From Escherichia coli (GTDB lineage Bacteria; Pseudomonadota; Gammaproteobacteria; Enterobacterales; Enterobacteriaceae): 64,000 bases of DNA. Below, piece by piece: positions 26,411 through 28,366 of the stretch. Made by a program: the position numbers and the translations under genes. The notes beneath the pieces were generated by a model. That model saw only the letters and a program-made list of their open reading frames with translations. It had not been told where the DNA came from and ran no database searches. Positions within the stretch are counted from its first letter, which is position 1. The number at the start of each line of letters is the position of its first letter. The stretch is taken from assembly GCF_003334335.1 (NCBI RefSeq), contig NZ_QOWQ01000024.1; one strand, 5' to 3'.

Positions 26411-26890
26411 ATGAAACGAATTGCGTTTGTGGGTAGCGTCGGGGCAGGAAAAACAACGTTATTTAATGCGTTGCAGGGGAATTATACCCTCGCCAGAAAA
26501 ACACAGGCCGTGGAATTTAATGATAAGGGCGATATTGATACGCCGGGTGAATATTTTAACCATCCCCGCTGGTATCACGCCTTAATTACCACGCTACAGG
26601 ATGTAGACATGCTGATCTATGTCCATGGCGCAAATGACCCGGAAAGTCGGTTGCCTGCCGGGTTGCTGGATATTGGCGTCAGCAAACGGCAAATCGCCGT
26701 CATCAGTAAAACGGACATGCCAGATGCTGACGTCGCCGCAACGCGAAAGTTATTGCTTGAGACGGGCTTCGAAGAGCCGATTTTCGAGCTAAACAGCCAC
26801 GACCCGCAAAGCGTGCAGCAACTGGTGGATTATCTGGCATCTCTCACCAAACAGGAGGAAGCAGGTGAAAAAACTCATCACAGCGAATGA
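26411..26890 (+). CDS. eutP: EutP/PduV-family P-loop protein
   Basis: 159-aa ORF with Walker A motif GSVGAGKTT. Confidence 0.93.
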   Translation: MKRIAFVGSVGAGKTTLFNALQGNYTLARKTQAVEFNDKGDIDTPGEYFNHPRWYHALITTLQDVDMLIYVHGANDPESRLPAGLLDIGVSKRQIAVISKTDMPDADVAATRKLLLETGFEEPIFELNSHDPQSVQQLVDYLASLTKQEEAGEKTHHSE

Positions 26891-27566
26891 TATTCGTGAA
26901 GCACACGCGCGCGGCGAACAGGCAATGTCCGTGGTTCTGCGCGCCAGCATTATTACCCCGGAAGCCCGTGAAGTGGCGGATCTACTGGGTTTTACCATCA
27001 CCGAATGTGATGAATCGATCCCGGTAACGGCGTCCGTGCCCGCCAGCGTGCCAGCCGACAAAACCGAAAGCCAGCGCATCCGCGAAACCATCATTGCCCA
27101 GCTGCCGGAAGGCCAGTTTACCGAAAGCCTGGTCGCACAGCTGATGGAAAAAGTGATGAAGGAAAAACAGTCGCTGGAGCAGGGCGCAATGCAGCCGAGC
27201 TTCAAATCGGTGACCGGCAAAGGCGGCATCAAAGTGATTGATGGCAGTAGCGTCAAGTTTGGTCGTTTCGACGGCGCAGAGCCGCATTGCGTGGGCTTGA
27301 CTGATCTTGTGACCGGAGACGACGGCAGCAGCATGGCCGCCGGTTTTATGCAGTGGGAGAACGCATTCTTCCCGTGGACCCTGAACTACGACGAAATCGA
27401 CATGGTGCTGGAAGGGGAGCTGCATGTTCGCCACGAAGGCCAAACCATGATCGCCAAAGCAGGCGACGTGATGTTTATCCCGAAAGGCTCCAGCATCGAA
27501 TTTGGTACGACATCCAGCGTGAAATTCCTGTATGTCGCCTGGCCGGCTAACTGGCAATCCCTATGA
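26865..27566 (+). CDS. eutQ: cupin-fold protein EutQ
   Basis: 233-aa ORF overlapping the eutP 3-prime end by 26 nt. Confidence 0.93.
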   Translation: MKKLITANDIREAHARGEQAMSVVLRASIITPEAREVADLLGFTITECDESIPVTASVPASVPADKTESQRIRETIIAQLPEGQFTESLVAQLMEKVMKEKQSLEQGAMQPSFKSVTGKGGIKVIDGSSVKFGRFDGAEPHCVGLTDLVTGDDGSSMAAGFMQWENAFFPWTLNYDEIDMVLEGELHVRHEGQTMIAKAGDVMFIPKGSSIEFGTTSSVKFLYVAWPANWQSL

Positions 27567-28366
27567 AAGATTTCATCACCGAAGCATGGCTAAGAGCGAA
27601 CCATACGCTCAGCGAAGGCGCAGAGATCCATCTCCCTGCGGACAGTCGCCTGACGCCCTCTGCCCGGGAGTTGCTGGAAAGCCGCCATCTGCGCATCAAG
27701 TTTATTGACGAGCAGGGCCGCCTGTTTGTTGACGATGAACAGCAGCAGCCGCAGCCCGTTCATGGGCTGACCAGTAGCGATGAACATCCGCAGGCGTGCT
27801 GCGAACTGTGTCGCCAGCCGGTGGCAAAAAAGCCGGATACGCTGACTCACCTGTCGGCGGAAAAAATGGTCGCCAAAAGCGATCCGCGTCTGGGTTTTCG
27901 CGCGGTTCTCGACAGCACCATTGCGCTGGCAGTGTGGCTGCAAATTGAACTGGCGGAACCGTGGCAGCCGTGGCTGGCGGATATCCGTTCGCGTCTTGGC
28001 AACATTATGCGCGCCGATGCGCTGGGGGAACCGCTGGGCTGCCAGGCGATTGTCGGGCTTTCTGACGAAGATCTGCATCGGCTTTCTCATCAGCCGCTGC
28101 GCTATCTCGACCACGATCATCTGGTGCCGGAAGCCAGCCACGGGCGCGATGCTGCGTTGCTCAATCTGCTACGCACCAAAGTGCGGGAAACCGAAACCGT
28201 AGCGGCGCAGGTCTTTATCACCCGCAGCTTTGAAGTATTACGCCCGGACATTTTGCAGGCGCTGAACCGCCTTTCGAGCACGGTCTACGTGATGATGATC
28301 CTGAGCGTAACGAAGCAGCCGCTAACGGTGAAGCAGATCCAACAACGACTGGGGGAAACGCAATGA
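27563..28366 (+). CDS. eutT: ethanolamine-utilisation cobalamin adenosyltransferase
   Basis: 267-aa ORF with a 4-nt ATGA overlap with eutQ. Confidence 0.93.

Follow-up and report, generated by a model that had tools for sequence, protein, structure and literature searches.

The eut Operon and Its Overlapping Genes

The window analyzed here, a 64,000-nucleotide stretch of DNA from Escherichia coli, carries an intact and uninterrupted chromosomal eut operon at 26063–40948 (+ strand). Its 17 genes follow the order eutS-P-Q-T-D-M-N-E-J-G-H-A-B-C-L-K-R of the enterobacterial EUT1 locus, as annotated by PGAP in a strain identical over the query, and the same gene order was found in the loci of relatives from Escherichia to Pseudomonas. 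All eut genes lie on the + strand without large gaps, promoter-like hits inside the operon number two (8.3 expected), and co-transcription of the genes is taken from the eut operon literature. In some K-12 strains a prophage lies after eutA (PMC11334477). For bases 26000–29500 of the window, many complete E. coli chromosomes show 100% identity, and a match was obtained in 5,414 of 5,426 genomes. From approximately base 76 to its end, the window is colinear with the RefSeq annotation of strain NZ_CP051158, with 14 mismatched positions overall, seven mismatches across 11000–44500, and 100% identity over 26000–29500.

Five pairs of neighboring eut genes overlap, all on the + strand. The longest overlap (26865–26890, 26 nt) extends from the GTG start of eutQ (26865–27566, 233 aa) at 26865 to the TGA stop of eutP (26411–26890, 159 aa) at 26888–26890, such that the final eight codons and the stop of eutP fall inside eutQ. 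The stop of eutQ and the start of eutT (27563–28366), which encodes a corrinoid adenosyltransferase of 267 aa, share the sequence ATGA at 27563–27566, and a second ATGA at 28363–28366 joins the stop of eutT to the start of eutD (28363–29379; annotated as pta), a phosphotransacetylase of 338 aa. Farther downstream, eutJ and eutG overlap by 11 nt at 32357–32367 (ATGcaaaaTGA, with the eutG ATG at 32357), and the eutH stop and eutA start share a GTGA at 34984–34987. Outside the operon, also on the + strand, the stop of cysP and start of cysU meet in TGATG (52564–52568; 1-nt overlap at base 52566), those of cysU and cysW in TAATG (53397–53401; 1-nt overlap at base 53399), and cysW and cysA overlap by 11 nt (54264–54274). 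A sequence-only reading of the window had listed all of these overlaps, and they are present as it described, with boundaries in agreement with the RefSeq (PGAP) annotation. The overlaps are already known, being part of the public annotation, and the one between eutP and eutQ is mentioned in a paper on Salmonella (PMC12487888).

Four of the five overlapped eut starts have a Shine-Dalgarno site (SD) at the proper distance, with sites inside the upstream gene that range from −8.4 to −10.3 kcal/mol. These are the AGGAGG of eutQ (26853–26858, + strand; −10.3 kcal/mol anti-SD duplex), a GGGGGA SD-like site for eutD within the 3′ end of eutT (28351–28356, + strand; −8.4 kcal/mol), GGAGGGG upstream of eutG (−10.0 kcal/mol), and GGAGG upstream of eutA (−9.5 kcal/mol). 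The exception is eutT, at −1.7 kcal/mol, which among the other starts of the operon is matched in weakness by eutR only. Of the cys genes, cysA has an equally strong AGGAGG upstream (−10.3 kcal/mol) and cysU and cysW have sites of about −6 kcal/mol, again inside the upstream gene. Rfam gave no match in the eutP–eutD overlap region. Long antisense ORFs in eutQ and eutT (181–191 aa) were rejected as genes, their open length varying even within Escherichia (192 vs. 59 codons).

Start Codons of the Overlapped Genes

Apparent overlaps can be artefacts of annotation, with the real starts lying further downstream, and two of the overlapped starts here are GTG while eutG possesses an alternative GTG 27 nt upstream. 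We therefore weighed the annotated starts against 43 loci encoding EutQ relatives, ranging from Escherichia, Salmonella, Citrobacter, Klebsiella, Buttiauxella, and Morganella to Pseudomonas and Xenophilus, in which each eut gene was located by tblastn. In eutQ, eutT, eutD, and eutA no start codon of the open frame lies 5′ of the annotated one, and the annotated ATG of eutG has the GGAGGGG and aligns as a start in related loci. The GTG of E. coli eutQ aligns with ATG in Yokenella, Entomohabitans, Buttiauxella, Morganella, and Pseudomonas, and that of eutA with ATG in Pluralibacter and Morganella. Residues directly after the starts, KKLITAN in EutQ (VKKLITAND with the initiator codon and the following residue) and FITE in EutT, are conserved as far as Pseudomonas, and use of the next in-frame eutQ ATG, at codon 21, would delete conserved sequence. 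Deletion constructs in Salmonella kept eutQ codons 1–9, and their authors noted that these overlap eutP (PMC12487888). Given the aligned starts, the conserved N-termini, and an SD at every overlapped start but eutT, mis-annotation of the overlapped starts is very unlikely. The reassignment of starts that could have removed the overlaps did not materialize across the 43 loci, and we regard the artefact explanation as highly improbable.

Overlap Frequency Relative to Background

Short co-directional overlaps are the commonest type of junction in prokaryotic operons. Among E. coli unidirectional gene pairs, 24% genome-wide are spaced at −8 to +6 nt, with −4 the commonest spacing by far (PMC10666635). 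Within the window as a whole, 11 of 48 co-directional junctions overlap, the six outside the eut operon being hyfA/B, gcvR/bcp, ypeA/yfeZ, and the three of cysP/U/W/A, and the rate in eut (5/16) did not differ significantly from that in the rest of the window (6/32; Fisher p = 0.47). At the 24% genome-wide rate, the probability of at least five overlaps among 16 junctions is 0.33, and when five overlaps are placed randomly on 16 junctions a run of at least three consecutive ones arises 21% of the time. The eut overlap pattern is no more frequent than expected, and the overlaps are compact junctions of the kind usual in long polycistronic bacterial operons. Their weight for biology at large is low, short overlaps being common and those of eut present in every annotation.

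The most characteristic eut junction is not an overlap; it is a stop-SD-start arrangement with 9–12 nt from stop to start. This class accounts for 6 of the 16 eut junctions against none of the other 32 in the window (p = 6.5e-4), and for 6.8% of junctions genome-wide (P = 4.3e-4 for eut).

Turnover of Junctions Across Lineages

Counted over phylogenetically related loci, which are not independent events, the eutT/eutD overlap was found in 39 of 39 comparable loci (−4 in 21 and −11 in 18), the sole eut overlap so retained, and eutJ/eutG overlapped in 28 of 35 (−11 in 26). The eutH/eutA junction was −4 in 25 of 33 loci; Pseudomonas, Xenophilus, and two strains of Morganella morganii had spacings of +2 to +11. 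An overlap between eutP and eutQ was present in 30 of 41 loci, as −26, −23, or −4, with spacings of +4 to +15 in Morganella, Pluralibacter, Intestinirhabdus, and Serratia. At eutQ/eutT the −4 form was restricted to 17 of 39 loci, all within an Escherichia-Salmonella-Klebsiella-Pseudocitrobacter-Intestinirhabdus group, and the spacing in the remaining loci was +4 to +12, apart from a single +156. Conservation of four of the five eut overlaps does not reach beyond the Escherichia-Salmonella-Klebsiella group. Close spacing is general, overlap per se is labile at these four junctions, and the forms interconvert among lineages. The retention of eutT/eutD (39/39) and eutJ/eutG (28/35) suggests selection for tight linkage beyond mere compactness.

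Protein Levels and Microcompartment Stoichiometry

The sequence-only reading had proposed that the overlaps are likely to matter for setting protein stoichiometry in the microcompartment. Protein levels are available from a label-free proteome of E. coli W3110, a strain whose eut operon is intact, after growth with ethanolamine and B12 (PMC11334477). Relative iBAQ values, which reflect steady-state abundance and not synthesis rate, were 100 for EutQ, 96 for EutM, 39 for EutL, 37 for EutB, 27 for EutE, 24 for EutC, 11 for EutS, 10 for EutD, 8 for EutK, 7 each for EutG and EutP, and 1 for EutN (PMC11334477). EutT was detected and 207-fold induced, the text of that paper giving no abundance value for it (PMC11334477). 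Protein output thus rises 14-fold across the eutP/eutQ overlap, and EutD, two overlaps on, stands at one-tenth of EutQ.

The products of the overlapping pairs are two acetate kinases, the adenosyltransferase, and the phosphotransacetylase, together with a chaperone-like protein, an alcohol dehydrogenase, a permease, and a reactivase. At the shell genes (eutS, M, N, L, and K) and the genes for the heteromer EutBC, junctions are non-overlapping, at +9 to +106 nt (eutB/C, +20). Were the overlaps selected coupling devices that give fixed Eut ratios for microcompartment assembly, one could point to the eutT/eutD overlap in all 39 comparable loci and to the −11 form of eutJ/eutG in 26 of 35; yet the five overlapping eut pairs include no shell pair and no known heteromer, the measured EutP:EutQ:EutD ratio is 7:100:10, the eutQ/T, eutP/Q, and eutH/A overlaps have been lost in lineages with the same operon, and the overlap frequency equals background. 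A role of the overlaps in microcompartment stoichiometry is not supported, and we consider such devices quite unlikely. Overlaps are enriched among genes for heteromers (PMC10666635). The cysUWA genes encode subunits of one ABC transporter, so the stoichiometry argument fits cys better than eut.

In an RNA-unfolding form of coupling, ribosomes on the upstream gene would open a structure that sequesters the downstream start. Predicted opening energies of the overlapped eut starts are 8.4–13.0 kcal/mol, and their mean does not differ from that of non-overlapped starts (10.4 vs. 9.8 kcal/mol, p = 0.74). Over the 12 proteins with values, abundance tracked the sum of predicted opening energy and SD energy (Spearman rho −0.62, p = 0.03, n = 12), a relation with opening cost and SD strength of the initiation region that is only suggestive in so small a sample. 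Operon protein ratios, including those of the shell, would be set mainly by the initiation region of each gene and not by overlaps, and the places to look for the basis of shell stoichiometry are the individual initiation regions and the eutM–eutN spacer.

The eutM–eutN spacer contains the best terminator-like hairpin of the operon. In 40 of 42 loci a stable hairpin (folding energy ≤ −12 kcal/mol) is found no more than 50 nt from the eutM stop, as assessed sequence by sequence because an RNAalifold/MAFFT alignment put the two arms out of register. In one set of lineages the spacer also has a second hairpin, with a T-run and an invariant TACCTGAA motif. Rfam gave no family match for the spacer hairpin, and a literature search found no paper on it.

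The eutP Tail as a Probable Passenger on eutQ

Spacings of −26, −23, −4, +4, +11, +12, and +15 occur between eutP and eutQ, covering all three relative frames. Where eutP is in the same frame as eutQ it stops 12 nt before it (Morganella, Pluralibacter); in the ATGA frame the junction is −4 (Buttiauxella, Pseudomonas); and in the third frame eutP ends only at the first off-frame stop within eutQ, for a junction of −23 or −26. An apparent in-frame eutP-eutQ fusion in Morganella proved to be an artefact of a tblastn alignment that crossed the stop, the true junction being TAA followed by 12 nt.

The overlap in the window codes for EutP residues 152–159, past the Pfam PduV-EutP domain, which covers residues 1–143 of the 159. 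A sequence search with EutP gave no match among solved structures. The overlap encodes nine distinct EutP tails vs. four EutQ N-termini among the loci, with 8 of 12 variable sites at third codon positions of eutQ. The difference between the 23- and 26-nt forms stems from synonymous GCT-AAC vs. GCG-AAT at eutQ codons 7–8, which make a TAA or TGA in the eutP frame. The AGGAGG of eutQ, second strongest SD in the operon, lies 6 nt upstream of the GTG, codes for Gln-Glu-Glu in eutP, and is kept in every −23/−26 locus.

At −26, eutP/eutQ lies outside both the −4/−1 and the approximately −8 to +10 nt geometry associated with coupling. EutQ is present at about 14 times the level of EutP and has a strong AGGAGG, which argues that eutQ is initiated independently; handing on of ribosomes from eutP cannot yield such a ratio. 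Initiation at eutQ would then be essentially independent of eutP, and the overlap itself a passive by-product, created when the EutP tail, free of constraint, shifted frame or lost its stop, so that it now runs to the first off-frame stop in eutQ. That the EutP tail is a passenger is a small addition, absent from the literature searched. One could also imagine that the overlap serves programmed +1 frameshifting to an EutP-EutQ fusion on a six-A run inside it (GTGAAAAAAC), eutQ being in the +1 frame relative to eutP. We rejected this because the run is not conserved: it is broken in three of five Klebsiella loci (GTGAAGAAAC; K. oxytoca, K. michiganensis, and K. pneumoniae) and in Yokenella (ATGAAAACG), all of which keep the overlap. 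No stimulatory element was seen in support of frameshifting, and we give it practically no credence.

A eutT Start Without an SD

The eutQ/eutT junction exists in two forms that differ in their signals for eutT. All 17 loci with the −4 form are without an SD (−1.5 to −2.3 kcal/mol), whereas all 22 loci with a spacer (4–156 nt) have a GGAG or GGGG SD in it (−5.2 to −9.2 kcal/mol), the Citrobacter-type spacer being TAAggcggatgtATG. From this complete association, the SD-less overlap is most likely the derived state, formed by loss of an SD-bearing spacer. The loss was probably a single event; the 43 loci are related, and the entire eutT pattern among them may go back to that one event. A literature search on the eutT SD site returned nothing relevant, and the derived SD-less start is, like the EutP tail, a small addition that is absent from the literature searched.

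Judged by its sequence, eutT is the best candidate for true termination-reinitiation. Since EutT is produced although its gene has no SD, some delivery of ribosomes from eutQ is the simplest source of its translation. Ribosomes terminating at the eutQ UGA would most likely restart on the overlapping AUG and be the main source of eutT translation, and because restart without an SD would be inefficient, EutT would reach only a small part of the high EutQ level. In its strictest form, loss of the SD-bearing spacer of 4–12 nt in the Escherichia-Salmonella-Klebsiella group left eutT to be translated only by ribosomes just off eutQ, a tentative proposal that we hold to be possible but rather doubtful. 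If true, it would describe an obligate, inefficient reinitiation valve that holds EutT at a fixed, small share of EutQ, here the most abundant Eut protein and the shell-cargo linker, and it would provide a natural case of SD-independent reinitiation whose evolutionary origin can be dated.

Translational Coupling at the Overlaps

Coupling of translation at short overlaps is textbook knowledge, and coupled pairs commonly, though not always, carry the SD of the downstream gene within the upstream one. In reporter tests of native E. coli −4 pairs, four of five were coupled, and removal of the SD substantially lowered reinitiation in four of five tested pairs (PMC6728339). Coupling drops steeply as distance grows (PMC10666635), a longer overlap is more harmful than a longer gap, and in a systematic study none was seen at −25 nt (reviewed in PMC12548453). 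Searches for literature on eut translational coupling or ribosome profiling found none; those on the cysUWA overlaps returned nothing relevant, and no coupling experiment on eut or cys was found. With no direct translation measurement found for the eut and cys junctions, coupling at them is something we infer.

The sequence-only reading had held that such overlaps imply translational coupling. Stop and start lie within −4/−1, or approximately −8 to +10 nt, at eutQ/T, eutT/D, eutH/A, cysP/U, and cysU/W, and at these −4/−1 junctions coupling is plausible by analogy with the four of five native pairs that were coupled (PMC6728339). As a blanket claim it fails at eutP/Q, with its −26 overlap, strong AGGAGG, and roughly 14-fold excess of EutQ over EutP. 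The −11 junctions eutJ/G and cysW/A have a borderline geometry. Where a −4 or −1 junction is combined with an SD, at eutT to eutD, eutH to eutA, and cysP to cysU to cysW, reinitiation and fresh initiation probably both contribute, and for eutJ to eutG and cysW to cysA, with −11 overlaps and strong SDs, fresh initiation is probably dominant and coupling weaker.

We consider the likely explanation to be that these are ordinary compact junctions working in differing ways, with protein ratios deriving from each gene's own initiation region. Another account would make the overlaps purely neutral by-products of stop loss and of ATGA/GTGA contexts, without an effect on expression anywhere. The turnover of junction forms, the passenger behavior of the eutP tail, and overlap rates equal to background are all in keeping with neutrality, as is the eutD start, ATGATTATTGAA, which has an off-frame TGA in both other frames, such that an upstream gene in either frame ends within 11 nt. 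Against it stand eutT, without an SD in 17 of 17 overlap-form loci although EutT is made (207-fold induction in W3110), the coupling seen in four of the five native E. coli −4 pairs studied with reporters (PMC6728339), and the presence of the eutT/eutD overlap in 39 of 39 loci. Neutrality everywhere appears unlikely to us, if somewhat less so than selection for fixed Eut ratios. The findings are of practical use to those engineering or deleting eut genes: deletions of eutP, eutQ, or eutT must keep the neighboring gene's start and SD, and eutT expression is probably inseparable from eutQ translation unless a ribosome-binding site is added.

Comparison with Known Systems

The closest known precedents for termination-reinitiation are the native E. 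coli 4-nt overlaps hyfH/I, astD/B, ydbH/ynbE, and menD/H (Huber et al., 2019, 2023; PMC6728339, PMC10666635), whose ATGA/GTGA geometry is that of eutQ/T, eutT/D, and eutH/A. As in those pairs, the genes are co-directional within one operon, and at eutT/D and eutH/A the SD of the downstream gene lies inside the upstream gene. Unlike them, eutT is without the SD that aided coupling, and the −11 and −26 junctions fall outside the −4 geometry.

The known-system reference for the operon is the EUT1 locus of Salmonella enterica LT2, and the Salmonella loci compared were those of S. enterica subsp. arizonae and diarizonae. In these, gene order is the same where readable, as are the −4 junctions of eutQ/T and eutT/D, and diarizonae has the same −11 eutJ/G junction as E. 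coli. The eutP/eutQ overlap differs, at 23 nt in Salmonella vs. 26 nt here, owing to the synonymous eutQ codons 7–8 that shift the eutP stop. Within the same window, the sulfate/thiosulfate ABC transporter genes cysPUWA likewise form a chain of three overlaps (−1, −1, −11) with SDs in the upstream genes; in contrast to the overlapping eut pairs, the annotation makes CysU, CysW, and CysA subunits of a single transporter.

In the general model, gene overlaps arise by stop-codon loss and 3′ extension. The EutP tail resembles what that model describes, passing beyond its domain into eutQ, ending at the first off-frame stop, and varying freely. The model is silent on function; here the eutQ SD, coded as Gln-Glu-Glu in EutP, is kept in the extended frame.

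Gene Junctions of the eut Operon

The eut operon occupies positions 26063-40948 on the + strand, where 17 genes in the order eutS-P-Q-T-D-M-N-E-J-G-H-A-B-C-L-K-R form 16 junctions. The sequence-only reading had emphasized overlapping reading frames in this operon; the junction class that is enriched here is not overlaps but a stop codon, a Shine-Dalgarno (SD) site and a start codon in succession, with a stop-to-start gap of 9-12 nt. Six of the 16 eut junctions have this layout (26399-26410, 30106-30116, 31521-31530, 36388-36398, 38669-38677, and 39338-39349), compared with none of the 32 remaining co-directional junctions in the window (Fisher p = 6.5e-4). 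Measured against the genome-wide rate of this class, 6.8%, the eut count is also improbable (P = 4.3e-4), and the spacing is kept in most of the related eut loci.

Overlaps also occur elsewhere in the window. Based on gene boundaries from the annotation of the reference strain (NZ_CP051158), ypeA and yfeZ share 14 nt (43352-43365) and gcvR and bcp share 1 nt (base 1390). In the reference strain hyfA and hyfB also share 1 nt, at the position corresponding to base 50; the window sequence diverges from the reference at this point, so the window itself may not have this overlap.

Hairpins in the eutM-eutN Spacer

The spacer between eutM and eutN (29712-29817) lies 3′ of the major shell gene, eutM. 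It holds the top terminator-like hairpin of the operon, with a 10-bp stem (29719-29744) followed by TCTCTCCTTTTTCATTTT. Downstream of it is a second hairpin (CTCTCC...GGGGGAG), accompanied by a T-run and a TACCTGAA motif, which was unchanged in 13 of 14 aligned loci ranging from E. coli to Morganella; the exception was one Buttiauxella, with TATCTGAA. Of 42 loci, 40 have a stable hairpin no more than 50 nt from the eutM stop codon (median z of −2.8). Comparison by eye of the E. coli and Morganella stems revealed two wobble changes and one compensatory pair (A-U to G-C). Salmonella, some Citrobacter and most Klebsiella loci differ in that their spacer is occupied by hairpins that, by eye, look to be of REP type.

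An Rfam search with the spacer hairpins returned no match, and a literature search found no paper on the hairpin. It could act as a partial terminator, as a stabilizer of the mRNA, or as a repressor of eutN translation. For the last of these options we cite the relative iBAQ values of 96 for EutM vs. 1 for EutN (EutQ = 100) in E. coli W3110 grown on ethanolamine plus B12 (PMC11334477).

REP-Like Elements and Variant eut Loci

The 216-nt eutG-eutH spacer (33545-33760) is composed of two REP/BIME-like copies and contains a match to Rfam naRNA4 (RF02564; 33599-33680, 71.8 bits); across the Escherichia loci this spacer is between 116 and 474 nt long. Another naRNA4/REP match lies between ypfH and ypfN (8811-8887, 92.7 bits), and the ES036 (CssrF) sRNA was matched on the − strand, 3′ of cysM (56467-56509, 40.9 bits).

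Reduced eut operons, in which eutD directly follows eutQ, were found in one Yokenella locus (L020) and two Serratia spp. loci (L033 and L042). By tblastn, eutT and eutJ gave no match in any of the three, and eutH gave none in the two from Serratia. The eutQ-eutT spacer measures 156 nt in Citrobacter sp. NCU1 (10691-10846 of its locus) and 9 nt in close relatives.

Comparison With Other E. coli Strains

Positions 1-75 of the window are unrelated to NZ_CP051158; elsewhere the two are colinear and mismatch at 14 positions overall. The synteny breakpoint falls within the 3′ end of hyfA, and the window strain may therefore be missing the rest of the hyf operon there. The ypfG gene (19091-20134) is an intact open reading frame of 347 aa; the reference copy has an internal stop (W to stop) and is annotated as a pseudogene.

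In K-12 BW25113, a prophage inserted 3′ of eutA breaks the eut operon (PMC11334477). The window carries no such insertion, and eutA and eutB are separated by just 11 nt (36388-36398).
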